Source: Balanoglossus misakiensis
Taxonomy: Eukaryota > Animalia > Hemichordata
Assembly (NCBI GenBank): GCA_040954595.2
Contig: CM082590.2
Span: 5,208,001 to 5,272,000 of the forward strand
DNA length: 64,000 bases
Reading direction: 5' to 3'
Both the position numbers and the translations under genes were made by a program. Shown here piece after piece: positions 29,773 to 64,000 of the stretch (position 1 is its first letter; every line of letters begins with the position of its first letter). The notes under the pieces are model-generated. The model worked only from the letters and a program-made list of their open reading frames with translations, made no database searches and had not been told where the DNA came from.

Positions 29773-31544
29773 AGACAATCGTTGCTTTTGGTGTGAAATG
29801 TCGGTTGTTATAGTTAACAGTTCACTTACCAGTGGATTTTTAGCTTTCCTGGAAGCCATGATTACGTCATTGACATTGTGTTGGAATACTTTAAGAATCT
29901 GGATCTGTACCACCACTCTCGAGTTGAACAAGTCAGCTTCGTAAATGTTCCATAATGGCGTCGTCGCCCACCTGGTCAGTTGATGTTGACAACAAGTTGG
30001 GGAAAACCCCGATAAATAAGGAAGTACACTACAAAGTAAAATAATGACAAGAGTTGGGTCAAGGTTCATGACGCCATAAAAGTGTGGCATATACACTTCA
30101 ATACTGTGGTGACGACACAGCAGAATTCCTAGATTTCTGTTTAAATCACTAAACTAGTTGGCACCAACAATTTGAATATTTTTGTTTCATGACAGTATGA
30201 GCAGTGGAATGAAGTGGCCTATTCCCACTTCACAAGCTTCAGTACAGGACATAGTCTCACTTTGCAAACTCTTCTCGCTTCACTAGTTCGCCACTGTCGG
30301 TGTGAGAATGCGAGGAGCGAAACCAAAAGTGTCAGGGGAGAACACAGTCGCATGAGGATTGTGTTGTGTTTATACGACGATCGCCTATGACACTTTTCTG
30401 TGTCATAGGTGATCGACGTGATATACAATTCAACCCCCGTGCGCCTGTGGGGGAGAATCACTGCATTCCATTGTGATGACGTACACACAAGACAGGCAAT
30501 GAATTTAACTATTACAAAGGACCCTTGACCTAGTTGACTTTCAGTCAATGCGTGTTGTGCCAGACAGTATGTGACTGACCGACAGGCCCCGTCGAAGTTG
30601 ACAGCCCAGTGCAGTATAAGATATCATATACGTGCACTGTGTAATCATGTGATTGTGAGTGAATATCATTGCACGTCTACGACTACATGAATCAAGGATT
30701 TTGTTTCGTCTGTCAGTTGTGGCTGATTTCCTGTTAGTGTTGAGAAATTTAGTATTTCCCGTCTTTGCAAATTGGCATTTTTTCCATAATGTAGTATTAT
30801 AGGCAAATACTACATTATTGCCAACTGTGTCTTTAAATTTTGAATTGTTGCATGAGACATTGAAAATCAGACTACTATAGAAATGAATCCACTCTCATAC
30901 AATCAATTTTAAGTGGTCAATGACCTTTAAAGTACTGTACATAAACATTTAAGAGATAATTCATGAGATATACAAGTAGGAAAACTTTTCTCAAATATAA
31001 TTCAAGTGACCATCCAAAATAATCTATAAACTCAAAAATCTCTGGTAGAATGAAGCTGAGGCAAGTGCTGGCAATTAATGATTTATCTCACCATGGTGGT
31101 TTAACTTAAATTAATTGTTTTCTAGAGTAAAATTGGACCTCTATAGCAGGAAATGGGGTTGAAAGGATTAAGGTAGTCTTGTACCTTGAAAAATAAAATC
31201 TTAAATTTAGGCCAAAAATGTTGGGTCATGGTGCAAATTTAAATGAGAGAACTAGGCGATATTATCTCTACCACGTTGTTTCATGAGTCACTGGACTGAC
31301 CCATCAGAAGACTAAACTGACCAGTTTATTGGGGGCACAAGCGCCCTCAGGCGGCTTGTGCCCCCATTGTTATTGTTGGAATTTTTACGGGCCCAAGCCA
31401 AGCCAGGCTTGGGCCCGTATTGGTTTCGTTGGGGTTTTTAGGGCCCAAGCGCATACCAGCGCTTGGGCCCTATTGGTTTCGTTGGGGTTTTTAGGGCCCA
31501 AGCGCAAGCCAGCGCTTGGGCCCTATTGGTTTCGTTGGGGTTTT

Positions 31545-34500
31545 TCTGTCTTTCCTTCTTTCTTCTTTCTTCTTTCTTTCTTTATTCTTGTGTCAATTCT
31601 TTGTCGCTCTAGATCTCAGACACCGCTGCAGGTACACTTCTGAAACTTGCTACAGTGGTCAAGGTCAATGAGTAGTCGTGCATTGAACCTGTGAATTTTT
31701 AATTAGTCACGTGACCTGGCGGCCATCTTGGATTTTCTGAAAAAATGCAAATCTCAGATCTCAGAAACTACAAGTCAGATCAACTTCAAATTTGGCATGC
31801 TGGTAGACTACCTTCTGCCCATCATTTTTGTAATTGGAAATTATGCTGACAATGTTGCAGTTTTTTTGCTACAATTTTATTTCTGAAATCTGACTTAAAT
31901 TTCAAAAATCTTCTTCTCCAGAACCGGTGATAACCGAGACACGGGGTTTGAAGTATGTGGTCACCTAACTGATGTCTATCAAGTTTGCGAAGATCATTGT
32001 GATTGGTCGAAGATTATGGCGGCCATATTGGATTTTCGAAAAACCATAGTAAAACTTCAAAAATCTTCTTCTCAAGAACCGGCGATAATTGAGTCACAAG
32101 ATTTGGGCAGTATGGTCACTATACTGATGTCTATCAAGTTTGCAAAGAGCATTGTGATTGGTTGAAGATTATGGCGGCCATATTGGATTTTGCGAAAAAC
32201 GATTAAAAAGTAAAAATTCCCTTTTCTAGCCTAAAAATTGATAGCACAGAAATTCTTTTTATGGATATGAATCATCATATGACTACAATGTGCTTCAAAT
32301 ATTTTGGTAATTTTGGCAATGACCTTTGACCTACTTTTGACGCATCATTTTTCTGCATATCTTATTCCAGGCTAACCAATAGGGCTATAAGTTTGGTTTT
32401 TGATGTATGTGGATTAGTGTGTGATCAAAATATTTTGCTACTTTTCACGACCCCTTTGACCCCTGCTGACCTCATTAATTATGTGCATAGCTAATTACAG
32501 GCGAACCAATAGACCTAGAGGTTTTGTTTTTGTTGGACAGGACCAGTATGGGGTCAAATGTTTTTACCCAAATGTTGGGTGACCTCGGGTGACCTTTGAC
32601 CTACTTTTGCATATCTTGACATCCATAGCAGATACAGCGTTGGCGTTTGGAGGTATGGGGCCATAATGAAAAGCCAAAGTTTTGGGTCACCTCTGACACC
32701 TGCTTAACTCATTATTTATGTGCATACCTAATTTCGGGCTAACCAAAAGGGCTAGAGATCTGGTTTTTGTTGGACATAGACCACTATGGGTCAAAATTTT
32801 CTGCCCAAATTGTGGGTGACCTCTAGGTGACCTTTGACCTACTTAACACTATATCAACACCAAACATAGATATAACCTTGATATTTCATGGGATAAAACA
32901 CAGCATTATGTTCCTACTCATTAATTATGTGCATATCTGATAATCAGATCAGATAATAGAGCTTGGGCCCGGACAATGCTGCTTGCAGCTTTAATTCTGT
33001 CTTTCCTTCTTTCTTCTTTCTTCTTTCTTCTTTCTTTATTCTTGTGTCAATTCTTTGTCGCTCTAGATCTCAGACACCACTGCAGGTACACTTCTCAAAC
33101 TTGCTACAGTGGTCAAGGTCAATGAGTAGATGTGCATTGAACCCTTGAATTTTTAATTAGTCACGTGACCTGGCGGCCATATTAGATTTTCTGAAAAAAT
33201 GCAAATCTCAGATCTCAGAAACTACAAGTCAGATCGACTTCAAACTTGGTGTGCAGGTAGTCTACCTTCTACCCATCATTTTTGTAATTGGATATTTTGC
33301 TGTCAATGTTGCAGTTTTTTTGCTACAGTTGTTTTTCTGAAATCTGGTCAAAATTTCAAAAATCTTCTTCTCCAGAACCGGCGATAACCGAGTCACGCGG
33401 TTTGGGGTATGTGGTCACCAAACTGAGGTCTATCAAGTTTGCGAAGATCATTGTGATTGGTGGAAGATTATGGCGGCCATATTGGATTTTCGAAAAACCC
33501 TAGTAAAATTTCAAAAATCTTCTTCTCAAGAACCGGCGATAACCGAGTCACAAGATTTGGTGTGTGTGGTCATTAAACAGATGTCTATCAAGTTTGCGAA
33601 GATCATTGTGATTGGTGGAAGATTATGGCGGCCATATTGGATTTTCGAAAAACCCTAGTAAAATTTCAAAAATCTTCTTCTCAAGAACCGGCGATAACCG
33701 AGTCACAAGATTTGGTGTGTGTGGTCATTAAACAGATGTCTATCAAGTTTGCGAAGATCATTGTGATTGGTCAAAGATTTTGGCGGCCATATTGGATTTT
33801 GTGAAAAACAATTAAAAAGTAAAAATTCCCTTTCTAGCCTAAAAATTGATAGCACAGAAATTCTTTTTATGGATATGAATCATCATATGCCAAGAATAAG
33901 CTGTAAATATTTTGGTAATTTTGGCAATGACCTTTGACCTACTTATCATGCATTATTATTTCTGCATATCTAATTCCTGGCTAACCAATAGGGCTATAAG
34001 TTTGGTTTTAGATGTATGTGGATTTGTATGTGATCAAAAAATTTTGCTACTTTTCATGACCCCTTTGACCTCTGCTGACCTCATTAAATATGCATATACC
34101 TAATTACAGATGAACCAATAGACCTAGAGGTTTTGTTTTTGTTATACATGGACCAGTATGGGGTCAAAATATTTTGCCCAAATGTTGGGTGACCTCGGGT
34201 GACCTTTGACCTACTTTTGCATATCTCGACATCCACACCAGATACAGCCTTGGCGTTTGGAGGTATGGGGCCATAATGAAAAGCCAAAGTTTTGGGTCAC
34301 CTGTGACACCTGCTTTACTCATTAAATATGCACATACCTAATTACAGATGAACCAATAGACCTAGAGGTTTTGTTTTTGTTATACATGGACCACTACGGG
34401 TCAAAATTTTCTACCCAAATTTTGGGTGACCTCAGATGACCTTTGACCTACTTTTGCATATCTCAGCATCCAAAGCAGGTACAACCTTGGCGTTTGGAGG

Positions 34501-34843
34501 TATGGGGCCATAATGAAAAGCCAAAGTTGTGGGGTCACCTGTGACACCTGCTTTACGCATTATTTATGTGCATACCTAATTCCGGGTTAACCAAAAGGGC
34601 TAGAGGTCTGGTTTTTGTTGGACATTGACCACTATGGGTCAAAATATTCTGCCCAAATTGTGGGTGACCCCTGGGTGACCTTTGACCTACTTAACACTAT
34701 ATCAGCACCAAACATAGATATAACCTTGATATTTCATGGGATAAAACACTGCATTATGTTTCTACTCATTAATTATGTGCATATCTAATAATCAGATCAG
34801 ATAATAGAGCTTGGGCCCGGACAATGCTGCTTGCAGCTTTAAT

Positions 34844-34875
<32 letters not shown>

Positions 34876-36694
34876 TATTCTTGGTTCATTTCTTTCGCGC
34901 GCTAGATCTCAGACACCGCTGCAGGTACAGTTCTCAAACTTGCTACAGTGGTCAAGGTCAATGAGTAGATGTGCAGTGACTTGTGAATACTTAATTAGTC
35001 ACGTGACATGGCGGCCATATTGGATTTTCTGAAAAAATGCAAATCTCAGATCTCAGAAACTACAAGTCAGATCGACTTCAGATTTGGTGTGCTGGTAGTA
35101 TACCCTCTGCCCATCATTTTTGTAATTGGATATTTTGCTGTCAATGTTGCAGTTTTTTTGCTACAGTTGTTTTTCTGAAATCTGGTCAAAATTTCAAAAA
35201 TCTTCTTCTCCAGAACCGGCAATAACCGAGTCACGCCGTTTGGGGTATGTGGTCACCTAACTGATGTCTATCAAGTTTGCGAAGATCATTGTGATTGGTC
35301 GAAGATTATGGCGGCCATATTGGATTTTCGAAAAACCATAGTAAAACTTCAAAAATCTTCTTCTCCAGAACGGGCGATGACTGAGTCACAAGATTTGGTG
35401 TGTGTGGTCATTAAACAGATGTCTATCAAGTTTGCGAAGGGGAATGTGATTGGTCGAAGATTATGGCGGCCATATTGGATTTTGTGAAAAACGATTAAAA
35501 AGTAAAAATTCCTTTTCTAGCCTAAACATTGATAGCACAGAAATTCTTTTTATGGATATGAATCATCATATGACAAGAATAAGCTATAAATATTTTGGTA
35601 ATTTTGGCAATGACCTTTGACCTACTTTTGACAAATCATTTTTCTGCATATCTAATTCATGGCTAACCAATGGGGCTATAAGTTTGGTTTTTGATGTATG
35701 TGGATTTGTATGTGATCAAAAAATTTTGCTACTTTTCATGACCCTTTGACCTCTGGTGACCTCATTAAATATGCGCATACCTAATTAATGATGAACCAAT
35801 AGACCTAGAGGTTTTGTTTTTGTTATACATGGACCAGTATGGGGTCAAAATATTTTGCCCAAATGATGGGTGACCTCGGGTGACCTTTGACCTACTTTTG
35901 CATATCTTGACATCCACACCAGATACAGCCTTGGCGTTTGGAGGTATGGGGCCATAATGAAAAGCCAAAGTTTTGAGTCACCTGTGACACCTGCTTTACT
36001 CATTATTTATGTGCATACCTAATTCCGGGCTAACCAAAAGGGCTAGATGTCTCGTTTTTGTTTGACATGGACCACTATGGGTCAAAATTTTCTGCCCAAA
36101 TTTTGGATGACCTCAGATGACCTTTGACCTACTTTTGCATATATCGGCATCCAAAGCAGGTACAGCCTTGGCATTTGGAGGTATGGGGCCATAATGAAAA
36201 GCCAAAGTTTTGGGTCACCTGTGACACCTGCTTTATGCATTATTTATGTGCATACCTAATTCCGGGCTAACCAAAAGGGCTAGAGGTCTGGTTTTTGTTG
36301 GACATGGACCACTGTTGGTCAAAATTGTCTGCCCAAATTGTGGGTGACCTCTGGGTGACCTTTGACCTACTTAACACTATATCAACAACAAACATAGATA
36401 TAACCTTGATATTTCATGGGGATAAAACACAGCATTATGTTTCAACTCATTAATTATGTGCATATCTAATAATCAGATCAGATAATAGAGCTTGGGCCTG
36501 GACAATGCTGCTTGCAGCTTTAATTCTTTATTATTACGGGCCCAAGCCAAGCCAGGCTTGGGCCCGTATTGGTTTCGTTGGAGTTTTTTACGGGCCCAAG
36601 CCAAGCCAGGCTTGGGCCCGTATTGGTTTCGTTGGGGTTTTTACGGGCCCAAGCCAAGCCAGGCTTGGGCCCGTATTGGTTTCGTTGGGGTTTT

Positions 36695-36726
<32 letters not shown>

Positions 36727-39700
36727 TATTCTTGGTTCATTTCTTTCGCGCGCTAGATCTCAGACACCGCTGCAGGTACAGTTCTCAAACTTGCTACAGT
36801 GGTCAAGGTCAATGAGTAGATGTGCAGTGACTTGTGAATACTTAATTAGTCACGTGACATGGCGGCCATATTGGATTTTCTGAAAAAATGCAAATCTCAG
36901 ATCTCAGAAACTACAAGTCAGATCGACTTCAGATTTGGTGTGCTGGTAGTATACCCTCTGCCCATCATTTTTGTAATTGGATATTTTGCTGTCAATGTTG
37001 CAGTTTTTTTGCTACAGTTGTTTTTCTGAAATCTGGTCAAAATTTCAAAAATCTTCTTCTCCAGAACCGGCAATAACCGAGTCACGCCGTTTGGGGTATG
37101 TGGTCACCTAACTGATGTCTATCAAGTTTGCGAAGATCATTGTGATTGGTCGAAGATTATGGCGGCCATATTGGATTTTCGAAAAACCATAGTAAAACTT
37201 CAAAAATCTTCTTCTCCAGAACGGGCGATGACTGAGTCACAAGATTTGGTGTGTGTGGTCATTAAACAGATGTCTATCAAGTTTGCGAAGGGGAATGTGA
37301 TTGGTCGAAGATTATTGCGGCCATATTGGATTTTGTGAAAAACGATTAAAAAGTAAAAATTCCTTTTCTAGCCTAAACATTGATAGCACAGAAATTCTTT
37401 TTATGGATATGAATCATCATATGACAAGAATAAGCTATAAATATTTTGGTAATTTTGGCAATGACCTTTGACCTACTTTTGACAAATCATTTTTCTGCAT
37501 ATCTAATTCATGGCTAACCAATGGGGCTATAAGTTTGGTTTTTGATGTATGTGGATTTGTATGTGATCAAAAAATTTTGCTACTTTTCATGACCCTTTGA
37601 CCTCTGGTGACCTCATTAAATATGCGCATACCTAATTAATGATGAACCAATAGACCTAGAGGTTTTGTTTTTGTTATACATGGACCAGTATGGGGTCAAA
37701 ATATTTTGCCCAAATGTTGGGTGACCTCGGGTGACCTTTGACCTACTTTTGCATATCTTGACATCCACACCAGATACAGCCTTGGCGTTTGGAGGTATGG
37801 GGCCATAATGAAAAGCCAAAGTTTTGAGTCACCTGTGACACCTGCTTTACTCATTATTTATGTGCATACCTAATTCCGGGCTAACCAAAAGGGCTAGATG
37901 TCTGGTTTTTGTTTGACATGGACCACTATGGGTCAAAATTTTCTGCCCAAATTTTGGATGACCTCAGATGACCTTTGACCTACTTTTGCATATATCGGCA
38001 TCCAAAGCAGGTACAGCCTTGGCATTTGGAGGTATGGGGCCATAATGAAAAGCCAAAGTTTTGGGTCACCTGTGACACCTGCTTTATGCATTATTTATGT
38101 GCATACCTAATTCCGGGCTAACCAAAAGGGCTAGAGGTCTGGTTTTTGTTGGACATGGACCACTGTTGGTCAAAATTGTCTGCCCAAATTGTGGGTGACC
38201 TCTGGGTGACCTTTGACCTACTTAACACTATATCAACAACAAACATAGATATAACCTTGATATTTCATGGGGATAAAACACAGCATTATGTTTCAACTCA
38301 TTAATTATGTGCATATCTAATAATCAGATCAGATAATAGAGCTTGGGCCCGGACAATGCTGCTTGCAGCTTTAATTCTTTCTTTCTTTCTTTCTTTATTC
38401 TTGGTTCATTTCTTTCGCGCGCTAGATCTCAGAAACCGCTGCAGGTACAGTTCTCAAATTTGCTACAGTGGTCAAGGTCAATGAGTAGATGTGCAGTGAC
38501 TTGTGAATACTTAATTAGTCACGTGACATGGCGGCCATATTGGATTTTCTGAAAAAATGCAAATCTCAGATCTCAGAAACTACAAGTCAGATCGACTTCA
38601 GATTTGGTGTGCTGGTAGTATACCCTCTGCCCATCATTTTTGTAATTGGATATTTTGCTGTCAATGTTGCAGTTTTTTTGCTACAGTTGTTTTTCTGAAA
38701 TCTGGTCAAAATTTCAAAAATCTTCTTCTCCAGAACCGGCGATAACCGAGTCACACCGTTTGGGGTATGTGGTCACCTAACTGATGTCTATCAAGTTTGC
38801 GAAGATCATTGTGATTGGTCGAAGATTATGGCGGCCATATTGGATTTTCGAAAAACCATAGTAAAACTTCAAAAATCTTCTTCTCCAGAACGGGCGATGA
38901 CTGAGTCACAAGATTTAGTGTGTGTGGTCATTAAACAGATGTCTATCAAGTTTGCGAAGGGGAATGTGATTGGTCGAAGATTATGGCGGCCATATTGGAT
39001 TTTGTGAAAAACGATTAAAAAGTAAAAATTCCTTTTCTAGCCTAAACATTGATAGCACAGAAATTCTTTTTATGGATATGAATCATCATATGACAAGAAT
39101 AAGCTATAAATATTTTGGTAATTTTGGCAATGACCTTTGACCTACTTTTGACGAATCATTTTTCTGCATATCTAATTCCTGGCTAACCAATGGGGCTATA
39201 AGTTTGGTTTTTGATGTATGTGGATTTGTATGTGATCAAAAAATTTTGCTACTTTTCATGACCCCTTTGACCTCTGGTGACCTCATTAAATATGCGCATA
39301 CCTAATTAATGATGAACCAATAGACCTAGAGGTTTTGTTTTTGTTATACATGGACCAGTATGGGGTCAAAATATTTTGCCCAAATGTTGGGTGACCTCGG
39401 GTGACCTTTGACCTACTTTTGCATATCTTGACATCCACACCAGATACAGCCTTGGCGTTTGGAGGTATGGGGCCATAATGAAAAGCCAAAGTTTTGGGTC
39501 ACCTGTGACACCTGCTTTACGCATTATTTATGTGCATACCTAATTCCGGGCTAACCAAAAGGGCTAGAGGTCTGGTTTTTGTTGGACATGGACCACTGTT
39601 GGTCAAAATTTTCTGCCCAAATTGTGGGTGACCTCTGGATGACCTTTGACCTACTTAACACTATATCAACAACAAACATAGATATAACCTTGATATTTCA

Positions 39701-39809
39701 TGGGGATAAAACACAGCATTATGTTTCAACTCATTAATTATGTGCATATCTAATAATCAGATCAGATAATAGAGCTTGGGCCCGGACAATGCTGCTTGCA
39801 GCTTTAATT
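31545..39809 (+). repeat. Family A bodies (five, 1.4-1.85 kb)
   Basis: Tails end at ~32996, 34844, 36525, 38376 and 39809; internal ~125-bp and ~238-bp subrepeats. Confidence 0.9.
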
Positions 39810-39862
39810 AGGGCCCAAGCGCATACCAGCGCTTGGGCCCTATTGGTTTCGTTGGGGTTTTT

Positions 39863-45800: not shown

Positions 45801-48554
45801 ATAATACCTTTACTTATACCTCTATGGTTAAGCTATGTCCATGTCTTATTGTGGAATTCTGGTCTGTGCAATAGTCCTGTACAGTGACTGTCTATTGGTC
45901 GGTGAGCACAATGACACCAAAATAAAAGGCACAATTTTAGGCTCACCTGTAACACCGGCTTAACTCATTAATTATGTGCATACCTAATTCTGGGCTAACT
46001 AAGAGGGCTAGAGGTTTCGTTCTTGTGGGACATGGACCAGTATAGGGTCAAAATTTCTTGCCCAAATTTTGGGTTACCTCAGGTGACCTTTGACCTACTT
46101 TCCTATATCTTGGCATCCAGAGCAGGTACAGACTTGGCGTATGGAGGGTTGGGACTAAAATTGAAAAGCCAAAATGTGGGTCACCTGTGACACCTGCATA
46201 TCTCATTAATTATGTGCATACCTAATTCCAGGCTAACCAATAGGGCTATAGGTTTGGTTTTTGTTGAACATGGACCAGTATAGGGTCAAAATTTCTTGCC
46301 CAAATTTTGTATGACCTCAGGTGACCTTTGACCTACTTTACCATATCTTGGCATCCAGAGTAGGTACAGAATTGGCGTTTGGAGGGTTGGGACTAAAATT
46401 GAAAAGGCAACACTGGGGGTTACCTGTGACACCTGCCTACCTCATTAATTATGTGCATACCTAATTCCAGGGTAACCGATAGGGTTATAGGTTTGTTTTT
46501 TGTTGAACATGGACCAGTATAGGGTCAAAATTTCTTGCCCAAATTTTGCATGACCTCAGGTGACCTTTGACCTACTTAACCATATCTTGGCATCCAGAGT
46601 AGGTACAGAATTGGCGTTTGGAGGGTTGGGACTAAAATTGAAAAGGCAACACTGGGGGTCACCTGTGACACCTGCCTACCTCATTAATTATGTACATACC
46701 TAATTTCAGGCTAACCAATAGGGCTATAGGTTTGGTTTTTGTTGAACATGGACCAGTATAGGGTCAAAATTTCTTGCCCAAATTTTGCATGACCTCAGGT
46801 GACCTTTGACCTACTTAACCATATCTTGGCATCCAGAGCAGATATGCTTATTGCTATGTTGCTATGTGCTATGTTGGCTTGGGCCCGCTATTGCTGCTTG
46901 CAGCTATATTTCTTCTTCTTCTTCTTCTTCTTCTGTCGTTTTTTTGGTGAGCTACATCTGGAAAACTGCTAAACCTACCAATTTCAAACTTGGCACAATG
47001 GTGCAGGTCAATGAGAGCTAGTGCAGTACCCTTGTGAATGTTTAATTAGTCACATGACCTGATGACCATATATGGGCAAAATTTTCAAATCGGCCTTATT
47101 TGCATATGAATGGAGATATCAAAATTCTTTTAGCAACTTTTGCGGACCATGTGGTCAGTGTCCTACATGCCAAATGTCAAGGCCATTGGCCATGCCAATT
47201 TTGAGAAGAAGATTTGTAAGTATTATTTTTCATATTTTTTCACCCAGCCCTGGGCCTATACTTTCCATAGTAAAGCCATGACCACATATTAGTTTGGATA
47301 AATATGCATACATATCTCAAAATCTGTTAGGCCGATCATCTCCAACTTTGGTGTGCAGCTAGCCTAGCATTTGTCAATAATTTTAAGCGAAAAAAAATGG
47401 TATGAAAAATCGACCGATTTTTTTATATTAATTTTTTTATTAAATAATACCTTTACTTATACCTCTATGGTTAAGCTATGTCCATGTCTTATTGTGGAAT
47501 TCTGGTCTGTGCAATAGTCCTGTACAGTGACTGTCTATTGGTCGGTGAGCACAATGGCACCAAAATAAAAGGCACAATTTTAGGCTCACCTGTAACACCT
47601 GCTTAACTCATTAATTATGTGCATACCTAATTTTGGGCTAACTAAGAGGGCTAGAGGTTTCGTTCTTGTGGGACATGGACCAGTATAGGGTCAAAATTTC
47701 TTGCCCAAATTTTGGGTGACCTCAGGTGACCTCTGACCTACTTTCCTATATCTCGGCATCCAGAGCAGGTACAGACTTGGCGTTTGGAGGGTTAGGACTA
47801 AAATTGAAAAGCCAAAATTTGGGGTCACCTGTGACACCTGCATACCTCATTAATTATGTGCATACCTAATTCCAGGCTAACCAATAGGGCTATAGGTTAG
47901 GTTTTTGTTGAACATGGACCAGTATAGGGTCAAAATTTCTTGCCCAAATTTTGCATGACCTCAGGTGACCTTTGACCTACTTTACCATATCTTGGCACCC
48001 AGGGCAGGTACAGACTTGGCGTTTGGAGGGTTGGGACTAAAATTGAAAAGCCAAATTGGGGGTCACCTGTGACACCTGCATATCTTATTAATTATGTGCA
48101 TACCTAATTCCAGGCTAACCAATAGGGCTATAGGTTTGGTTTTTGTTGAACATGGACCAGTATAGGGTCAAAATTTCTTGCCCAAATTTTGCATGACCTC
48201 AGGTGACCTTTGACCTACTTTACCATATCTTGGCACCCAGGGCAGGTACAGACTTGGAGTTTGGAGGGTTGGAACTAAAATTGAAAAGCCAAAATTGGGG
48301 GTCACCTGTGACACCTGCATATCTCATTAATTATGTGCATACCTAATTCCAGGCTAACCAATAGGGCTATAGGTTTGGTTTTTGTTGAACATGGACTAGT
48401 ATAGGATCAAAATTTCTTGCCCAAATTTTTGCATGACCTCAGGTGACCTTTGACCTAATTTTCCATATCTTGGCATCCAGAGCAAATATGCTTATTGCTA
48501 TGTTGCTATGTGCTATGTTGGCTTGGGCCCGCTATTGCTGCTTGCAGCTATATT
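39863..48554 (+). repeat. Family B block: four heads (loop ccagcag) and five bodies
   Basis: Heads at 39863, 39919, 39970 and 40021; tails gcttgggcccgctattgctgcttgcagctatatt end at ~41487, 43136, 45259, 46910 and 48554. Confidence 0.9.
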
Positions 48555-51500: not shown

Positions 51501-54500
51501 TCACATGACCTGGCGGCCATCTTGGATTTTCTGAAAAAATGCAAATCTCAGATCTCAGAAACTACAAGTCAGATCGACTTCAAATTTGGCGTGCAGGTAG
51601 ACTACCTTCTGACAAACATTTTTGTAATTGGAAATTATGCTGTCAATGTTGCAGTTTTTTTGCTACAGTTGTTTTTCTGAAATCTGGTCAAAATTTCAAA
51701 AATCTTCTTCTCCAGAACCGGCGATAACCGAGTCACGCCGTTTGGGGTATGTGGTCAGCAAACTGAGGTCTATCAAGTTTGCGAAGATCATTGTGATTGG
51801 TCGAAGATTTTGGCGGCCATATTGGATTTTCGAAAAACCCTAGTAAAATTTCAAAAATCTTCTTCTCAAGAACCGGCGATAACTGAGTCACAAGATTTGG
51901 TGTGTGTGGTCATTAAACAGATGTCTATCAAGTTTGCGAAGATGAATGTGATTGGTCGAAGATTATGGCGGCCATATTGGATTTTGTGAAAAACGATTAA
52001 AAAGTAAAAATTCCCTTTCTAGCCTAAAAATTGATAGCACAGAAATTCTTTTTATGGATATGAATCATCATATGCCAAGAATAAGCTATAAATATTTTGG
52101 TAATTTTGGCAATGACCTTTGACCTACTTTTGACGCATCATTTTTCTGCATATCTAATTCCAGGCTAACCAATAGGGCTATAAGTTTGGTTTTTGATGTA
52201 TGTGGATTTGTATGCGATCAAAAAATTTCGCTACTTTTCATGACCCCTTTGACCTCTGCTGACCTCATTAAATATGCGCATACCTAATTACAGATGAACC
52301 AATAGACCTAGAGGTTTGGTTTTTGTTGGACATGAACCAGTATTGGGTCAAATTTTTTGCCCAAATGTTGGGTGACCTCGGATGACCTTTGACCTACTTT
52401 TGCATATCTCGACATCCACAGCAGATACAGCCTTGGCGTTTGGAGGTATGGGGCCATAATGAAAAGCCAAAGTTTTGGGTCACCTGTGACACCTGCTTAA
52501 CTCATTATTTATGTGCATACCTAATTCCGGGCTAACCAAAAGGGATAGAGATCTGGTTTTTGTTGGACATGGACCACTATGGGTCAAAATTTTCTGCCCA
52601 AATTGTGGGTGACCTCTGGGTGACCTTTGACCTACTTAACACTATATCAACACCAAACATAGATATAACCTTGATATTTCATGGGATAAAACACAGCATT
52701 ATGTTTCTACTCATTAATTATGTGCATATCTAATAATCTGATCAGATAATACAGCTTGGGCCCGGACAATGCTGCTTGCAGCTTTAATTTCTTTCTTTAT
52801 TCTTGTGTCAATTCTTTGACCCACGAGATCTCAGACATCGCTGCAGGTACACTTCTGAAACTTGCTACAGTGGTCAAGGTCAATGAGTAGTCGTGCATTG
52901 AACCCTTGAATTTTTAATTAGTCACATGACCTGGCGGCCATCTTGGATTTTCTGAAAAAATGCAAATCTCAGATCTCAGAAACTACAAGTCAGATCGACT
53001 TCAAATTTGGCATGCTGGTAGACTACCTTCTGGCAATCATTTTTGTTATTGGAAATTATACTGACAAAGTTGCAATTTTTTGCTACAATTTTTTTTCTGA
53101 AATCTGGCTTAAATTTCAAAAATCTTCTTCTCCAGAACCGGTGATAACCGAGTCATGCGGTTTGGGGTATGTGGTCACCTAACTGATGTCTATCAAGTTT
53201 GCGAAGATCATTGTGATTGGTCGAAGATTATGGCGGCCATATTGGATTTTCGAAAAACCATAGTAAAATTTCAAAAATCTTCTTCTCAAGAACCGGCGAT
53301 AACTGAGTCACAAGATTTGGTGTGTGTGGTCATTAAACAGATGTCTATCAAGTTTGCGAAGAGGAATGTGATTGGTCGAAGATTATGGCGGCCATATTGG
53401 ATTTTGTGAAAAATGATTAAAAAGTAAAAATTCCCTTTCTAGCCTAAAAATTGATAGCACAGAAATTCTTTTTACAGATATTAATCATCATATGCCAAGA
53501 ATAAGCTATAAATATTTTGGTAATTTTGGCAATGACCTTTGACCTACTTTTGACACATGATTTTTCTGCATATCTAATTCCAGGCTAACCAATAGGGCTA
53601 TAAGTTTGGTTTTTGATGTATGTGGATTTGTATGTGATCAAAAAATTTTGCTACTTTTCATGACCCCTTTGACCTCTGGTGACCTCATTAAATATGCGCA
53701 TACCTAATTAATGATCAACCAATAGACCTTAGAGGTTTTGTTTTTGTTATACATGGACCAGTATGGGGTCAAAATATTTTGCCCAAATGTTGGGTGACCT
53801 CGGGTGACCTCTGACCTACTTTTGCATATCTCGACATCCACACCAGATACAGCCTTGGCGTTTGGAGGTATGGGGCCATAATGAAAAGCCAAAGTTTTGG
53901 GTCACCTGTGACACCTGCTTTACTCATTATTTATGTGCATACCTAATTCCGGGCTAACCAAAAGGGCTAGATGTCTGGTTTTTGTTGGACATGGACCACT
54001 ATGGGTCAAAATTTTCTGCCCAAATTTTGGATGAACTCAGATGACCTTTGACCTACTTTTGCATATATCGGCATCCAAAGCAGGTACAGTCTTGGCATTT
54101 GGAGGTATGGGGCCATAATGAAAAGCCAAAGTTTTGGGTCACCTGTGACACCTGCTTTACGCATTATTTATGTGCATACCTAATTCCGGGCTAACCAAAA
54201 GGGCTAGAGGTCTGGTTTTTGTTGGACATGGACCACTATGGGTCAAAATTTTCTGCCCAAATTTTGGGTGACCTCAGATGACCTTTGACCTACTTAACAC
54301 TATATCAACACCAAACATAGATATAACCTTGATATTTCATGGGATAAAACACAGCATTATGTTTCTACTCATTAATTATGTGCATATCTAATAATCAGAT
54401 CAGATAATAGAGCTTGGGCCCGGACAATGCTGCTTGCAGCTTTAATCTTTCTTTCTTTCTTTCTTTCTTTATTCTCCTGTCAATTCTTTGGCCAACGAGA

Positions 54501-57500
54501 TCTCTGAAACTACTGCAGGTACACTGCTCAAACTTGCTACAGTGGTCAAGGTCAATGAGTAGATGTGCAGTGACTTGTGAATACTTAATTAGTCACGTGA
54601 CCTGGTGGCCATATTGGATTTTCTGAAAAAATGCAAATCTCAGATCTCAGAAACTACAAGTTAGATCAACTTCAAATTTGGCATGCAGGTAGAATACCTT
54701 CTGCCCATCATTTTTGTAATCGGAAATTATGCTGTAAAAGTTGCAGTTTTTTTGCTACAATTTTTTTCCTGAAATCTGGCTTAAATTTCAAAAATCTTCT
54801 TCTCCAGAACCAGTGATAACCGAGTCACGGGGTTTGGGGTATGTGGTCACCTAACTGATGTCTATCAAGTTTGCGAAGATCATTGTGATTGGTCGAAGAT
54901 TATGGCGGCCATATTGGATTTTCGAAAAACCATAGTTAAACTCCAAAAATCTTCTTCTCCAGAACGGGCGATGACTGAGTCGCAAGATTCGGGGAGTATT
55001 GTCACTACACTGATGTCTATCAAGTTTGCAAAGAGCATTGTGATTGGTCGAAGATTATGGCGGCCATATTGGATTTTGTAAAAAGCAGTGAAAAATTGAA
55101 ATTCCTTTTTCTAGTCCAAAAATTGATAGCATTCAAATTCTTTTGATGGATATCAATCGTCATGTGACTAAAATATCTTACAATTTTTTGGCGATTTTTC
55201 ACATGACCTTTGACCTACTTATCACGCGTTATTATTTCTGCATATCTAATTCCAGGCTAACCTATAGGGCTAGACGTTTGGTTTTTGATGAATGTTGATT
55301 AGTGTGTGATCAAAATATTTTGCTACTTTTCATGACCCCTTTGACCTCTGCTGACCTCATTAATTATGTGCATAGCTAATTACAGACGAACCAATAGAGC
55401 TAGGGGTTTGGTTTTTGTTGGACATGGACCAGTATAGGATCAAAATTTTTTGCCCAAATGTTGGGTGACCTCTGGTGACCTTTGACCTACTTTCGCATAT
55501 CTCAGCATCCAGAGCAGATACAACCATGGCATTTGGTCGGATGGGACCAAAATGTAAAGCCACATTTTTGGGTCACCTGTGACACCTGCTGACCTCATTA
55601 TATATGTACATACCTAATTACAGGCGAACCAATAGAGCTAGAGTTTTGGTTTTTGTTGGACATGGACCAGTATGGGTCAAAAAAATTGCCCAAATGTTGG
55701 GTGACTTCAGGTGACCTTTGACCTACTTCACCCTATTTCAGCAGCAAAAATACACACATCCTTGTTATGTCATGAGATAATACATCCGATAGAAAATTCT
55801 GTTTCTTCTCATTCATACTGTGCATATATAATTCAAGATCAGCGCTTGGGCCCGACAATGCTGCTCGCAGCTTTAATTCTTTCTTTCTTTCTTTTTTCTT
55901 GTGTCAATTCTTCGGCCAACTAAATCTCAGAAACTACTGCAGGTACACTGCTCAAACTTGCTACAGTGGTCAAGGTCAATGAGTAGATGTGCAGTGACTT
56001 GTGAATACGTAATTAGTCACGTGACCTGGCGGCCATTTTGGATTTTCTGAAAAAATGCAAATCTCAGATCTCAGAAACTACAAGTCAGATCGACTTCAGA
56101 TTTGGTGTGCAGGTAGTGTACCTTCTGCCCATCATTTTTGTAATTGGATATTTTGCTGTCAATGTTGCAGTTTTTTTGCTACAGTTGTTTTTCTGAAATC
56201 TGGTCAAAATTTCAAAAATCTTCTTCTCCAGAACCGGTGATAACCCAGACACGAGGTTTGGGGTATGTGGTCACCTAACTGATGTCTATCAAGTTTGCGA
56301 AGATCATTGTGATTGGTCGAAGATTATGGCGGCCATATTGGATTTACGAAAAACCATAGTTAAACTCCAAAAATCTTCTTCTCCAGAACGGGCGATGACT
56401 GAGTTGCAAGATTCGGGGAGTATGGTCACTACACTGATGTCTATCAAGTTTGCAAAGAGCATTGTGATTGGTCGAAGATTATGGCGGCCATATTGGATTT
56501 TGTAAAAAGCAGTGAAAATTTGAAATTCCTTTTTCTAGTCTAAAATTTGATAGCATACAAATTGTTTTTATGGATATCAATCGTCATGTGACTAAAATAT
56601 GTTACAATTTTTTTGTGATTTTTCACATGACCTTTGACCTACTTATCACGCGTTATTATTTCTGCATATCTAATTCCAGGCTAACCTATAGGGCTAGACG
56701 TTTGGTTTTTGATGAATGTGAATTAGTGTGTGATCAAAATATTTTGCTACTTTTCATGACCCCTTTGACCCCAGCTGACCTCATTAATTATGTACATAGC
56801 TAATTACAGGCGAACCAATAGAGCTAGAGGTTTTGTTTTTGTTGGACATGGACCAGTATGGGATCAAATTTTTTTGCCCAAATGTTGGGTGACCTCTGGT
56901 GACCTTTGACCTACTTTCTCATATCTCAGCATCCAGAGCAGATACAGCCATTGCATTTGGTAGGATGGGACCAAAATGTAAAGCCAAATTTTTGGGTCAC
57001 CTGTGACACCTGCTGACCTCATTAAATATGCACATACCTAATTACAGGTGAACCAATAGAGCTAGAGTTTTGGTTTTTGTTGGACATGGACCAGTATGGA
57101 TAAAAAAAAATTGCCCAAATGTTGGGTGACCTCAGGTGACCTTTGACCTACTTCACCCTATTTCAGCAGCAAAAATACCCACATCCTTGTTATGTCATGA
57201 GATAATACATCCGATAGAAAATTCTGTTTCTTCTAATTCATACTGTGCATATATAATTCAAGATCAGCGCTTGGGCCCGACAATGCTGCTCGCAGCTTTA
57301 ATTAGGGCCCAAGCGCACGCAAGCGCTTGGGCCCTATTGGTTTCGTTGGGGTTTTTTACGGGCCCAAGCCAAGCCAGGCTTGGGCCCGTATTGGTTTCGC
57401 TGGGGTTTTTCTGTCTTTACGGGCCCAAGCCAAGCCAGGCTTGGGCCCGTATTGGTTTCGCTGGGGTTTTTAGGGCCCAAGCGCACGCAAGCGCTTGGGC

Positions 57501-60460
57501 CCTATTGGTTTCGTTGGAATTTTTACGGGCCCAAGCCAAGCCAGGCTTGGGCCCGTATTGGTTTCGCTGGGGTTTTTCTGTCTTTCTTTCTTTCTTTCTT
57601 TCTTTCTTTATTCTTGGTTCCATTCTTTATCGCTCTAGATCTCAGACACCGCTGCAGGTACAGTTCTCAAACTTGCTACAGTGGTCAAGGTCAATGAGTA
57701 GATGTGCAGTGACTTGTGAATACTTAATTAGTCACGTGACATGGCGGCCATATTGGATTTTCTGAAAAAATGCAAATCTCAGATCTCAGAAACTGCAAGT
57801 CAGATTTACTTCAGATTTGGTGTGCTGGTAGAGTACCTTCTGCCCATCATTTTTGTAATTGGATATTTTGCTGTCAATGTTGCAGTTTTTTTGCTACAGT
57901 TGTTTTTCTGAAATCTGGTCATAATTTCAAAAATCTTCTTCTCCAGAACCGGCGATAACCGAGTCACGCGGTTTGGGGTATGTGGTCACCAAGCTGAGGT
58001 CTATCAAGTTTGCGAAGATCATTGTGATTGGTCGAAGATTATGGCGGCCATATTGGATTTTCGAAAAACCCTGGTAAAATTTCAAAAATCTTCTTCTCAA
58101 GAACCGGCGATAACTGAGTCACAAGATTTGGTGTGTGTGGTCATTAAACATATGTCTATCAAGTTTGCGAAGGGGAATGTGATTGGTCAAAGATTATGGC
58201 GGCCATATTGGATTTTGTGAAAAACGATTAAAAAGTAAAAATTCCTTTTCTAGCCTAAAAATTGATAGCACAGAAATTATTTTTATGGATATGAATCATC
58301 ATATGCCAAGAATAAGCTATAAATATTTTGGTAATTTTGGCAATGACCTTTGACCTACTTTTGACGCATGATTTTTCTGCATATCTAATTCTAGGCTAAC
58401 CAATAGGGCTATAAGTTTGGTTTTTGATGTATGTGGATTTGTATGTGATCCAAAAATTTTGCTACTTTTCATGACCCCTTTGACCTCTGGTGACCTCATT
58501 AAATATGCACATACCTAATTACAGATGAACCAATAGACCTAGAGGTTTTGTTTTTGTTATACATGGACCAGTATGGGGTCAAAATATTTTGCCCAAATGT
58601 TGGGTGATCTCGGGTGACCTTTGACCTACTTTTGCGTATCTCGACATCCACAGCAGATACAGCCTTGGCGTTTGGAGGTATGGGGCCATAATGAAAAGCC
58701 AACGTTTTAGGTCACCTGCGACACCTGCTTAACTCATTAATTATGTGCATACCTAATTCTAGGCTAACCAAAAGGGCTAGAGGTCTGGTTTTTGTTGGAC
58801 ACGGACCACTATGGGTCAAAATTTTCTGCCCAAATTTTGGATGACCTCAGATGACCTTTGACCTACTTAACACTTAAACAGCACCAAACATAGATTTAAC
58901 CTTGATATTTCATGGGATAAAACAGCATTATTTTTCTACTCATTAATTATGTGCATATCTAATATCAGATCAGATAATAGAGCTTGGGCCCGGACAATGC
59001 TGCTTGCAGCTTTAATTCTTTCTTGCTGTCTTTCTTTCTTTCTTTCTTTATTCTTGTGTCAATTCTTCGGCCAACTAAATCTCTGAAACTACTGCAGGTA
59101 CACTGCTCAAACTTGCTACAGTGGTCAAGGTCTATGAGTAGATGTGCAGTGACTTGTGAATACTTAATTAGTCACGTGACCTGGCGGCCATATTGGATTT
59201 TCTGAAAAAATTCAAATCTCAGATCTCAGAAACTACAAGTCAGATCGACTTCAAATTTGGCATGCAGGTAGACTACCTTCTACCCATCATTTTTGTAATT
59301 GGAAATTTTGCTACAGTGTTGCAGTTTTTTTGCTACAATTTTTTTTCTGAAATCTGGCTTAAATTTCAAAAATCTTCTTCTCCAGAACCGGTGATAACCG
59401 AGACACGGGGTTTGGGGTATGTGGTCACCTAACTGATGTCTATCAAGTTTGCGAAGATCATTGTGATTGGTCGAAGATTATGGCGGCCATATTGGATTTT
59501 CGAAAAACCATAGTTAAACTCCAAAAATCTTCTTCTCCAGAACGGGCGATGACTGAGTCGCAAGATTCAGGGAGTATGGTCACTACACTGATGTCTATCA
59601 AGTTTGCAAAGAACATTGTGATTGGTCGAAGATTATGGTGGCCATATTGGATTTTGTAAAAAGCAGTGAAAAATTGAAATTCCTTTTTCTAGTCTAAAAA
59701 TTGATAGCATACAAATTCTTTTTATGGATATCAATCGTCATGTGACTAAAATATGTTACAATTTTTTGGCGATTTTTCACATGACCTTTGACCTACTTAT
59801 CACGCGTTATTATTTCTGCATATCTAATTCCAGGTTAAACTATAGGGCTAGACGTTTGGTTTTTGATGAATGTGGATTAGTGTGTGATCAAAATATTTTG
59901 CTACTTTTCATGACCCCTTTGACCTCTGCTGACCTCATTAATTATGTGCATAGCTAATTACAGGCGAACCAATAGAGCTGGAGGTTTGGTTTTTGTTGGA
60001 CATGGACCAGTATGGGATCAACATTTTTTGCCCAAATGTTGGGTGACCTCTGGTGACATTTGACCTACTTTCGCATATCTAAGCACCCAGAGCAGATACA
60101 GCCATGACATTTGGCAGGATGGGACCAAAATGTAAAGCCACATTTTTGGGTCACCTATGACACTTGCTGACCTCATTAAATATGCACATACCTAATTACA
60201 GGCGAACCAATAGAGCTAGAGTTTTGGTTTTTGTTTGACATGGACCAGTATGGGTCAAAAAAATTTGCCTAAATGTTGGGTGACCTCAGGTGACCTTTGA
60301 CCTACTTCACCCTATTTCAGCAGCAAAAATACACACATCCTTGTTATGTCATGAGATAATACATCCGATAGAAAATTCTGTTTCTTCTCATTCTTACTGT
60401 GCATATATAATTCAAGATCAGCGCTTGGGCCCGACAATGCTGCTTGCAGCTTTAATTCTG

Positions 60461-60492
<32 letters not shown>

Positions 60493-63400
60493 TATTCTTG
60501 GTTCCATTCTTTATCGCTCTAGATCTCAAACACCGCTGCAGGTACAGTTCTCAAACTTGCTACAGTGGTCAAGGTCAATGAGTAGATGTGCAGTGACTTG
60601 TGAATACTTAATTAGTCACGTGACATGGCGGCCATCTTGGATTTTCTGAAAAAATGCAAATCTCAGATCTCAGAAACTACAAGTCAGATCGACTTCAAAT
60701 TTGGCATGCTGGTAGACTACCTTCTGCCCATCATTTTTGTAATTGGAAATTATGCTGACAAAGTTGCCGTTTTTTTGCTACAATTTTTTTTCTGAAATCT
60801 GGCCTAAATTTCAAAAATCTTCTTCTCCAGAACCGGTGATAACCGAGACACGGGGTTTGGGGTATGTGGTCACCTAACTGATGTCTATCAAGTTTGCGAA
60901 GATCATAGTGATTGGTCCAAGATTATGGCGGCCATATTGGATTTTCGAAAAACCCTAGTAAAATTTGAAAAATCTTCTACTCAAGAACCGGCGATAACCG
61001 AGTCACAAGATTTGGTGTGTGTGGTCATTAAACAGATGTCTATCAAGTTTGCGAAGATGAATGTGATTGGTCGAAGATTATGGCGGCCATATTGGATTTT
61101 GTGAAAAATGATTAAAAAGTAAAAATTCCCTTTCTAGCCTAATAATTGATAGCACAGATATTCTTTTTATGGATATGAATCATCATATGACAAGAATAAG
61201 CTATAAATATTTTGGTAATTTTGGCAATGACCTTTGACCTACTTTTGACGCATCATTTTTCTGCATATCTAATTCCAGGCTAACCAATAGGGCTATAAGT
61301 TTGGTTTTTGATGTATGTGGATTTGTATGTGATCAAAAAATTTTGCTACTTTTCATGACCCCTTTGACCTCTGCTGACCTCATTAAATATGCATATACCT
61401 AATTAATGATGAACCAATAGACCTAGAGGTTTTGTTTTTGTTATACATGGACCAGTATGGGGTCAAAATATTTTGCCCAAATGTTGGGTGACCTCGGGTG
61501 ACCTTTGACCTACTTAACACTATATTAGCATCAGATCAGATAATAGAGCTTGGGCCCGGACAATGCTGCTTGCAGCTTTAATTCTTTCTTTCTTTCTTTA
61601 TTCTTGGTTCCATTCTTTATCGCTCTAGATCTCAAACACTGCTGCAGGTACAGTTCTCAAACTTGCTACAGTGGTCAAGGTCAATGAGTAGATGTGCAGT
61701 GACTTGTGAATACTTAATTAGTCATGTGACATGGCGGCCATCTTGGATTTTCTGAAAAAATGCAAATCTCAGATCTCAGAAACTACAAGTCAGATCGACT
61801 TCAAATTTGGCATGCTCGTAGACTACCTTTTGCCCATCATTTTTGTAATTGGAAATTATGCTGACAAAGTTGCAGTTTTTTTGCTACAATTTTTTTTCTG
61901 AAATCTGGCCTAAATTTCAAAAATCTTCTTCTCCAGAACCGGTGATAACCGAGACACAGGGTTTGGGGTATGTGGTCACCTAACTGATGTCTATCAAGTT
62001 TGCGAAGATCATTGTGATTGGTCGAAGATTATGGCGGCCATATTGGATTTTCGAAAAACCCTAGTAAAATTTGAAAAATCTTCTACTCAAGAACCGGCCA
62101 TAACCGAGTCACAAGATTTGGTGTGTGTGGTCATTAAACAGATGTCTATCAAGTTTGCGAAGATGAATGTGATTGGTCGAAGATTATGGCGGCCATATTG
62201 GATTTTGTGAAAAACGATTAAAAAGTAAAAATTCCCTTTCTAGCCTAATAATTGATAGCACAGAAATTCTTTTTATGGATATGAATCATCATATGACAAG
62301 AATAAGCTATAAATATTTTGGTAATTTTGGCAATGACCTTTGACCTACTTTTGACGCATCATTTTTCTGCATATCTAATTCCAGGCTAACCAATAGGGCT
62401 ATAAGTTTGGTTTTTGATGTATGTGGATTTGTATGTGATCAAATAATTTCGCTACTTTTCATGACCACTTTGACCTCTGCTGACCTCATTAAATATGCGC
62501 ATACCTAATTACAGATTAACCAATAGACCTAAAGGTTTGAGTTTTTTTGGACATGGATCAGTATGGGGTCAAAATATTTTGCCCAAATGTTGGGTGACCT
62601 CCGGTGACCTTTGACCTACTTTTGAATATCTCGGCATCCAAAGCAGGTACAGCCTTGGCATTCGGAGATATGGGGCCATTATGAAAAGCCAAAGTTTTGG
62701 GTCACCTGTGACCTCTGCTGACCTCATTAATTATGTGCATAACTAATTACAGGCGAACCAATAGAGCTAGAGGTCTGGTTTTTATTGGACATGGACCACT
62801 ATGGGTAAAAATTTTCTGCCCAAATTTTGGGTGACCTCAGATGACCTTTGACCTACTTTTGCATATCTCGGCATCCAAAGCAGGTACAGCCTTGGCATTT
62901 GGAGATATGGGGCCATAATGAAAAGCCAAAGTTTTGGGTCACCTGTGACACCTGCTTAACTCATTATTTATGTGCATACCTAATTACGGGCTAACCAAAA
63001 GGGCTAGAGGTCTGGTTTTTGTTGGACATGGACCACTATGGGTCAAAATATTCTCCCCAAATTGTGGGTGACCCCTGGGTGACCTTTGCCCTACTTAACA
63101 CTATATCAGCACCAAACATAGATATAACCTTGATATTTCTTGGGATAAAACACAGCATTATGTTTCTACACATTAATTATGTGCATATCTAATAATCAGA
63201 TCAGATAATAGAGCTTGGGCACGGACAATGCTGCTTGCAGCTTTAATCTTTCTTTCTTTTTTCTTGTGTCAATTTCTTCGGCCAACGAGATCTCTGAAAC
63301 TACTGCAGGTACACTTCTCAAACTTGCTACAGTGGTCAAGGTCAATGAGTAGATGTGCAGTGACTTGTGAATAATTAATTAGTCACGTGACCTGGCGGCC

Positions 63401-64000
63401 ATATTGGATTTTCTGAAAAAATTCAAATCTCAGATCTCAGAAACTACAAGTCAGATCGACTTCAAATTTGGCATGCAGGTAGACTACCTTCTACCCATCA
63501 TTTTTGTAATTGGAAATTTTGCTGTCAATGTTGCAGTTTTTTTGCTACAATTTTTTTTCTGAAATCTGGCTTAAATTTCAAAAATCTTCTTCTCCAGAAC
63601 CAGTGATAACCGAGACACTGGGTTTGGGGTATGTGGTCACCTAACTGATGTCTATCAAGTTTGCGAAGATCATTGTGATTGGTCGAAGATTATGGCGGCC
63701 ATATTGGATTTTAGAAAAACCATAGTTAAACTCCAAAAATCTTCTTCTCCAGAACGGGCGATGACTGAGTCGCAAGATTCGGGGAGTATGGTCACTACAC
63801 TGATGTCTATCAAGTTTGCAAAGAGCATTGTGATTGGTCGAAGATTATGGCGGCCATATTGGATTTTGTAAAAAGCAGTGAAAAATTGAAATTCCTTTTT
63901 CTAGTCTAAAAATTGATAGCATACAAATTCTTTTTATGGATATCAATCGTCATGTGACTAAAATATGTTACAATTTTTTGGCGATTTTTCACATGACCTT
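48555..64000 (+). repeat. Family A subfamily bodies (eleven, last truncated) with head clusters at 51080-51360 and 57304-57575
   Basis: Tails end at ~49668, 51079, 52789, 54446, 55878, 57303, 59017, 60457, 61583 and 63247. Confidence 0.9.

Follow-up and report, generated by a model that had tools for sequence, protein, structure and literature searches.

How can more than 32 kb of an animal genome consist solely of one kind of repeat when the front ends of that repeat lie in clusters and its back ends follow in headless runs? The question was raised by a 64,000-nucleotide (nt) stretch of the hemichordate Balanoglossus misakiensis (assembly GCA_040954595.2, contig CM082590.2, 5,208,001 to 5,272,000 of the forward strand), which is called the window here and whose DNA was animal-like (about 38% GC, introns present). 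Between 31,330 bp and 64,000 bp it was composed entirely of Helentron-like sequence, in which 5′ hairpins (heads, H0 to H21) alternate in groups with the remainders of the elements (bodies, b1 to b21). This region is a stack of about 22 non-coding Helentron-like copies, the front and back ends of which pair last-in-first-out, and it was likely built by repeated rolling-circle insertion behind resident 5′ hairpins.

Organisation of the stack

A pattern scan of the window detected 22 hairpin heads, 20 complete tails and one body that was cut by the window edge. Sixteen of the heads belonged to family A, four to family B and two to a third type, GGGGGCACAAGC, designated G. All tails of the array were on the + strand and none on the − strand. 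Behind each head came a T-run and then a microsatellite, (CTTT)n in family A and (CTT)n in family B. The original prediction, which was made from the letters of the window, had described five clusters of 4, 3, 5, 5 and 5 heads and an order in which bodies follow heads, and the scan bore out both.

When heads and tails were read as opening and closing brackets in a family-aware stack parse, every A bracket closed, one B tail was left over and the peak depth was 7. Family A had 16 heads against 15 complete bodies and one partial body, and the parse agreed with the prediction that family A closes each time and that the sole imbalance is an extra B body. The nesting depth did not return to zero anywhere to the right of 31,330 bp and was 3 at base 64,000, where H0, H12 and H17 were still open. 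As the stack is unclosed at the window edge, its 33 kb is a lower bound and it runs on beyond the window. The prediction of a 33-kb stack had set the two G heads aside; its order was right, but the G heads were the outermost open brackets and the length that it gave is only a minimum. Likewise, its image of a matryoshka held for the nested brackets but not for the overall shape, which was a tree rather than a single chain, as H4, H7, H12 and H17 each stood beside a closed sibling at one site.

Family A was varied, with three head subtypes (C, T1 and T2, distinguished by stem and loop) and at least three body subtypes. These differences in heads and bodies make the nesting testable.

Pairing of heads and bodies

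Heads and bodies were nested last-in-first-out, as was found by two tests. For the junction test an element was taken as T plus head through to tail, the inner elements were excised computationally and the host junction was then read. The visible junctions varied: the next head was preceded by 4 or 5 T of the host, or by 10–12 letters that extended into the microsatellite. Body starts varied in complement to these head-side T counts and spacers at distances of 1.5–14 kb. Last-in-first-out pairing regained five T and the microsatellite start in 16/16 family A elements and first-in-first-out pairing did so in 8/16, both counts being those of a relaxed pattern, since a stricter first one rejected two intact-looking junctions. 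In family B, H8 carried five microsatellite letters and b10 was without the usual start; the surplus of H8 matches the deficit of b10, so these two pair.

For the second test, bodies were assigned to subtypes X, Y and Z by eye, after the data had been seen, from the 24 nt behind the microsatellite, which left two bodies unclassed. Under nesting, six X bodies fell to C heads, four Y bodies to T1 heads and four Z bodies to T2 heads, the singletons b12 and b14 being left free. In the last block the heads ran T2, C, C, T2, C and the bodies C, T2, C, C, T2. Enumeration of the 207,360 admissible pairings gave 288 that were subtype-pure and 96 that restored all junctions; four did both, strict nesting among them, and the passing alternatives merely swapped heads of like subtype. 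When the innermost adjacent pairs were kept constant, both tests were passed by 2 of 1,152 pairings. The original prediction had proposed that innermost elements be excised iteratively, and doing so regenerated the intact junctions of all family A elements together with head subtypes that mirror the body subtypes.

The subterminal inverted repeats (subTIRs) of heads and tails were also compared. The three completed T2 heads paired with three bodies of a second tail type, with subTIR matches of 12–13 nt that lay 1.4 kb apart, and in the other 16 closed pairs the matches were 8–11 nt. When the distances among heads were rank-correlated with those among bodies, values as high as that of nesting were obtained in 216–308 of 20,000 random pairings; nesting was moderately significant in this test and was not the maximum.

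One other pairing was considered and rejected. The 12 heads and 12 bodies up to 51,078 bp would allow the G head H0 to be paired with the divergent body b12; that pairing leaves an A head to be closed by a B body, and the T count no longer holds. In addition, G heads precede a TAT-type tract in public contigs and b12 starts with CTTT. The interior of b12 (49,669–51,078 bp) was 19–27% divergent from the other complete A bodies and had a single 155-bp unit, with a typical 3′-end; b12 may be either a further subfamily or a recombinant.

Sites of insertion

All 21 internal insertions lay 4–14 nt into the T-run or microsatellite behind a resident head and in a single orientation (17 offsets were listed directly, with H9 read as 6, and four are sibling cases). 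None of the 21 was within a body or in the opposite orientation. Thirteen were at offsets of 4–6 nt and eight at 10–14 nt, inside the microsatellite. The 15 nt that follow the head were counted in five intact elements and contained 5–9 of the 309–372 TT/AA steps (1.6–2.5%) and one of the 36–46 runs of T4/A4 or longer per element, and none of the roughly ten T5 runs per body was ever used; because the locus was chosen as an extreme one, this head-adjacent bias overstates any genome-wide preference.

The insertion steps of the 19 closed elements were T^T in 14 cases and T^C in five, in a chosen register for the split of the terminal T between element and target, on which the family B steps depend. 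Insertion at T^T or T^C has been described for Helentron/Helitron2 in the accessible part of PMC13085455.

Outer and inner family A copies differed by 4.6–26.6% in 11 of 12 pairs and by 0.8% in one, a divergence which means that the inner copies were not local self-copies. B elements are found inside A elements and A elements inside G elements, so copies of one subfamily are targeted by those of another, in trans. The earlier inference that copies had inserted into the T-tract behind an older 5′ hairpin is supported by the restored junctions, by the position of 21/21 sites and by the subtype mirroring.

Anatomy and classification of the elements

Uninterrupted elements were 1.1–2.1 kb long. 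The 5′ hairpin had a 13–16-bp stem that started at the first base of the element, and the seven heads that were folded gave −16.6 to −20.7 kcal/mol. A 3′ subTIR with an 8–13-nt match to the 5′ arm ended 24–27 nt from the element end in 19/19 closed elements, and a short 3′ palindrome (GCTGC/GCAGC) was present in 20/20 tails, the last 40 nt of which folded weakly (−3 to −5 kcal/mol). Internal repeats were of 155 bp, in family A only, and of 237–239 bp, in both A and B. The longest stop-to-stop frame in the array was 211 amino acids (aa), spanned repeated heads and was without a Pfam match, and comparison with Rfam gave no family match. Neither the head nor the tail pattern had a match in viral contigs or prokaryote genomes. 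Three pattern matches in metagenomes were dismissed as chance hairpins; the two that were inspected (L001 and L002) were bacterial-type coding sequence.

The insertion steps at T^T or T^C were without target-site duplication, as is the rule for HLE2. By their anatomy, the elements are non-autonomous HLE2 of the HINE/DINE-1 type, belonging either to Helentrons proper, which are defined by an autonomous partner with matching termini that encodes RepHel plus an AP endonuclease domain, or to another HLE2 such as Helitron2. General HLE2 anatomy is described in the accessible part of PMC11417382, and that of Drosophila DINE-1 and the oyster element Cg_HINE in those of PMC4067079 and PMC7492417. With these the present copies share the 5′ subTIR and inverted repeat, the microsatellite, the central tandem repeats, the 3′ subTIR and palindrome, the T-rich target and the lack of target duplication. 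They differ in arrangement, as the published copies are dispersed, clustered or in tandem arrays and, in the portions of those papers available, repeated insertion behind a 5′ hairpin is not reported; the word 'nested' does not occur in the main text of PMC7492417. Canonical Helitron1 (HLE1; 5′ TC, 3′ CTRR, insertion at AT, no terminal inverted repeats) was ruled out by the start at T plus hairpin, the TTTAAT/TATATT ends with subTIRs and the T^T/T^C targets. A classical satellite or rolling-circle concatemer, in which one monomer is repeated head-to-tail, was ruled out because heads come first and bodies then mirror them, and because first-in-first-out pairing failed both tests.

The bodies were mosaic along their length. 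Two of them, b11 (48,555–49,668 bp) and b19 (60,457–61,582 bp), were both 1.1 kb long and had the same shortened 3′ form, with 1.9% divergence in the final 260 nt; their 5′ subtypes were different, with 8.9% divergence, which makes them chimeric elements. Among the heads, the hairpin loop of H13 was the reverse complement of that of H14 within identical arms (51,143–51,228 bp), a flip of the kind that would be expected of template switching at an extruded hairpin.

Evidence from public contigs

Part of the left flank was contained in three public runs from one sample. Their contigs were about 2% different from the window flank (for example, 5 of 226 letters) and probably represent another haplotype or a paralogous copy. 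One contig tracked the flank to 31,330 bp and continued with 105 letters of other sequence beginning ACTTTTTGCC, making it a candidate empty site at the exact left edge of the stack. Flank contigs over 29,800–31,330 bp fell into several depth classes and were 2–10% off the window, so that more than one copy of the left flank may exist and the empty site may belong to a paralogue.

Four contigs from two runs contained G heads, and behind these stood the very tract predicted by excision. On 29,800–31,700 bp, the loose ends listed (18 out of 163) included heads directly before a microsatellite and heads after unrelated flank, which represent solo one-headed copies. The original prediction had named natively multi-headed solo copies as a difficulty for nesting, and the solo copies in the contigs of this sample were one-headed. 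On 51,020–51,400 bp, contigs of 39–53 nt with 100% identity crossed the tail-G, G-T2 and T2-C junctions; none had 31 letters on both sides and all came from one sample. Among the pieces listed (16 out of 844) there were also junction types that are absent from the window, namely a variant G head with another head behind it, a contig that changes to a B-type loop where H13 would stand, and a tail-(ATT)n-head arrangement; they suggest nesting elsewhere too. Contig depth was not counted as copy number or as the share of nested heads, single-copy depth being unclear, and no weight was given to parts of the stretch that contigs leave uncovered.

Mechanism and alternative explanations

A RepHel transposase encoded elsewhere would have performed the insertions, integrating linear head-to-tail units from several subfamilies behind resident heads. 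Each insertion would bring in a fresh head and T-run and so regenerate the target, and the stack would grow from the inside, pushing heads to the left and bodies to the right. Circle crossover, concatemers and unequal exchange of whole elements yield a head-body-head-body order, unlike that observed. We slightly favour a choice of site in which the transposase binds the resident head, whose subTIR hairpin is GGGCCCAAGC-like, with its nick placed at the nearest T^T or T^C step, about 19–20 nt past the stem; a hairpin arm common to the families would explain why A, B and G target one another.

The same nesting would arise, hairpin recognition being unneeded, from a transposase that prefers a T-run with a (CTTT)n or (TAT)n tract anywhere, and this has a real, if less than even, chance of being correct. 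HINEs favour T-rich targets (accessible parts of PMC4067079 and PMC7492417), Paramecium Helitrons insert into telomeric repeats (likewise PMC13085455) and a lepidopteran Helitron-like family, by the title of the paper alone, disrupts (GAAA)n microsatellites; moreover, the eight insertions at 10–14 nt are inside the microsatellite, and there are contigs with tail-(ATT)n-head junctions. The other 13, at the hairpin-proximal edge, speak for the hairpin, as do the absence of any insertion beyond 14 nt although the microsatellites run for 20–40 nt, the unused T5 runs of the bodies, and the solo flanks and candidate empty site in the contigs, which are T-rich but not microsatellites. Tethering to the hairpin is favoured over a plain tract preference because insertions crowd the hairpin-proximal edge and ignore other T-runs. 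The broader proposal, that HLE2 transposase lands by resident 5′ hairpins at a fixed distance behind them, across subTIR-sharing families and genome-wide, would make these hairpins a self-regenerating safe harbour and would give nested blocks of satellite size by transposition alone with a base-resolved order of subfamilies; it is put forward tentatively, with its prospects a little short of even. Whatever chose the sites, part of the depth could have been imported, with nests that had formed elsewhere moving as composites (starting at the outer head and bypassing inner tails) in place of 21 separate local insertions. Multi-headed Helitron2 copies do transpose in Fusarium (accessible part of PMC5148889), and the extra B body, the absent age gradient and the closeness of the outer body b3 to the innermost b4 (both below) fit such a history. 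It is nevertheless unlikely, as transposition is documented to end at the first tail, which would produce more heads than bodies where family A balances 16:16, and moving a four-deep nest intact needs three bypasses. An origin from one element, or a few, whose heads and bodies multiplied separately through unequal crossover or slippage and balance by coincidence could draw on near-identical neighbours (H5 = H6; b3/b4, 0.2%; b4/b5, 0.8%) and on the mosaic bodies, which show that recombination acts here. Most adjacent bodies are 4–15% apart, the alternating T2, C, C, T2, C is mirrored by the bodies, and the variable T counts and spacers behind the heads find their exact complement at body starts 1.5–14 kb off; the enumeration of pairings largely refutes this origin, which we hold to be very improbable. 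An assembly artefact from collapsed or mis-ordered repeats has an equally small chance: no listed contig spans the stretch and the missing B head could be a local collapse, but the bodies are individually distinct, an assembler has no reason to yield mirrored subtypes and conserved T counts, and the exact 39–53-nt contigs cross three junctions in a sample whose flank is about 2% different.

Several observations weigh against nested insertion, or limit how far it can be carried. The relaxed junction pattern, the by-eye body subtypes, the moderate rank correlation, the choice of an extreme locus and the short single-sample junction contigs have been given with the results that they qualify. The G brackets (H0 and H12) had no closing bodies inside the window, and no autonomous partner or RepHel open reading frame was present among the open reading frames of the array. 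Family B was unbalanced, with four heads and five bodies, and the five bodies included no near-identical pair (3.5–4.9% apart), which bears on the origin of the extra one. A recent exact duplication was rejected as its source, since the closest pair, b8 and b9, differs by 2.2–2.7% at the ends and by 3.5% overall. Most simply, the extra body would have come from 3′-end bypass in a nested donor, giving one head and two bodies, or from loss of one 51-bp head. For the bat element Helraiser, the accessible part of PMC4778049 describes a left end that is required, a right end that can be bypassed, as shown experimentally, circles and no local hopping.

A gradient with older outer copies was sought in private substitutions and was not found (6/12 pairs); because the donors differ, this comparison is uninformative. 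The original prediction had held that the locus records insertion order, and of this a partial order, given by the stack, can be kept, whereas a total order cannot, the private substitutions being without gradient. The outer body b3 and b4, the innermost of the next nest, differed by 4 substitutions in 1.68 kb (0.2%). This fits poorly, and means that gene conversion has been at work or that diverse donors supplied the stack in very quick succession.

Features of the window

Table 1. Features of the nested stack in window coordinates, with the heads and bodies of each block.
Feature	Position (bp)	Strand	Basis or remark
Whole nested stack as visible, open at right edge (depth 3)	31330..64000	+	Pattern scan and stack parse; left edge also marked by contig leaving flank
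Head cluster 1: H0 (G, outermost, body outside window), H1 (A, C), H2 and H3 (A, T1)	31330..31545	+	Heads from 31331; hairpins −18 to −21 kcal/mol as DNA
Bodies b1 (to 32995, closes H3), b2 (to 34843, closes H2), b3 (to 36524, closes H1)	31546..36524	+	
10-nt leftover of T/(TAT)n tract belonging to the G element, visible between two insertions	36525..36534	+	Identical letters behind G heads in public contigs
Head cluster 2: H4, H5, H6 (all A, subtype C)	36535..36695	+	Heads from 36536
Bodies b4 (to 38375, closes H6), b5 (to 39808, closes H5)	36696..39808	+	
Head cluster 3: H7 (A, T1), then four family B heads H8–H11	39809..40070	+	Heads from 39810
Five family B bodies b6–b10; b6 closes H11, b10 closes H8, one of b7–b9 unpaired	40071..48554	+	
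Bodies b11 (to 49668, closes H7), b12 (to 51078, closes H4; divergent interior)	48555..51078	+	
Head cluster 4: H12 (G, open), H13 and H14 (A, T2), H15 (C), H16 (T1)	51079..51362	+	Heads from 51080; exact short contigs over three junctions
Bodies b13–b16, closing H16, H15, H14 and H13 respectively	51363..57302	+	
Head cluster 5: H17–H21 = T2, C, C, T2, C; deepest point (depth 7)	57303..57577	+	Heads from 57304
Bodies b17–b20 and partial b21, with subtypes in mirror order to cluster 5 (C, T2, C, C, T2)	57578..64000	+	
Example of an uninterrupted element, H6 + b4, 1734 bp	36642..38375	+	Head with subTIR, T-run, (CTTT)n, 155-bp and 238-bp repeats, 3′ subTIR 24 nt from end, GCTGC/GCAGC palindrome

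To the left of the stack, four minus-strand segments (15,056–16,342 bp, 18,503–18,994 bp, 19,020–19,307 bp and 25,796–26,086 bp) were exons of one gene, probably of the ROCO type, as 15,056–16,342 bp had a weak COR-B match (E 3e-5, below the curated cut-off). Pieces among these exons that are without a Pfam match are presumably P-loop-like and ankyrin-like. The stack lay about 5 kb upstream of the last exon piece seen. Two related exon-sized frames on the − strand (6390–6839 bp and 7728–8192 bp) were of about 150 aa, rich in Thr, Ala and Gly, with conserved Cys and no Pfam family. A 262-aa frame on the + strand (5148–5936 bp), without a Pfam match, is taken by us to resemble the C-terminal end of a LINE reverse-transcriptase open reading frame. 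A headless older relative from the same superfamily as the stacked elements was present at 9111–9520 bp (+), with about 83% identity to the 238-bp unit and a B-like tail ending in a T-run; a head motif was looked for upstream of it and none was found.

Comparison with known systems

The element type is ordinary, and it is the arrangement that is unusual and informative; that it arose by nested insertion is well supported. Self-targeting and nested clusters are familiar from Zepp, DIRS-1, multimers of miniature inverted-repeat transposable elements and Alu-in-Alu insertions, which are retroelements or move by cut-and-paste and not by rolling circle. How Helitron-like elements choose a target beyond the dinucleotide is an open question, and no reconstituted HLE2 system was found in the literature. 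The 21/21 insertions in a 10-nt window behind the element's own hairpin turn it into a precise and testable one, of hairpin-tethered against tract-driven insertion. The locus also offers a route to satellite-sized blocks without concatemers or unequal crossover, and warns that programs for repeat annotation will take loci of this kind for headless satellites accompanied by short tandem repeats.

In the open-access literature, where most subscription papers are missing, no description of a balanced, cross-family, seven-deep nest was found. The original prediction knew of no description at this depth; the depth and the base-level proof are new but the principle is not, as self-insertion near the 5′-end of Helitron2 had already been proposed (PMC5148889, accessible part). 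The same source describes Fusarium oxysporum Helitron2 (FoHeli) copies with several 5′ termini, including one nested case, and a three-copy case in Metarhizium. A text search of its supplements gave no matches in eight text files; figures S11–S13 are pictures and may bear on the depth of the fungal nests.

Other satellite-like blocks have been traced to target preference. A double insertion at a preserved target is described as the seed of transposable-element satellites in the accessible part of PMC5932611, in the main text of which the words 'Helitron' and 'DINE' do not occur. These satellites and the telomere-targeting Helitrons of Paramecium (PMC13085455, in part) resemble the stack in that a target preference leads to satellite-like blocks in one orientation. 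They differ from it in having a target in host sequence and side-by-side products, whereas in the stack every insertion renews a target that is part of the element itself. In plant centromeres, rolling-circle tandem arrays of truncated Helitrons combine many 5′-ends with a single 3′-end through concatemers (Xiong et al. 2016, as summarised in the accessible part of PMC12628747). They are likewise long and made up of Helitron parts, with several consecutive 5′-ends; in the stack, by contrast, there is one tail for every A head, and adjacent units belong to different subfamilies. The FoHeli copies are mostly several heads on one tail, with nesting hypothetical in the text available, whereas in B. 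misakiensis the bodies survive, the brackets balance to a depth of 7, three families target one another and the junctions can be restored to the base. The stack thereby supplies the balanced intermediate that the Fusarium multi-head model predicts.

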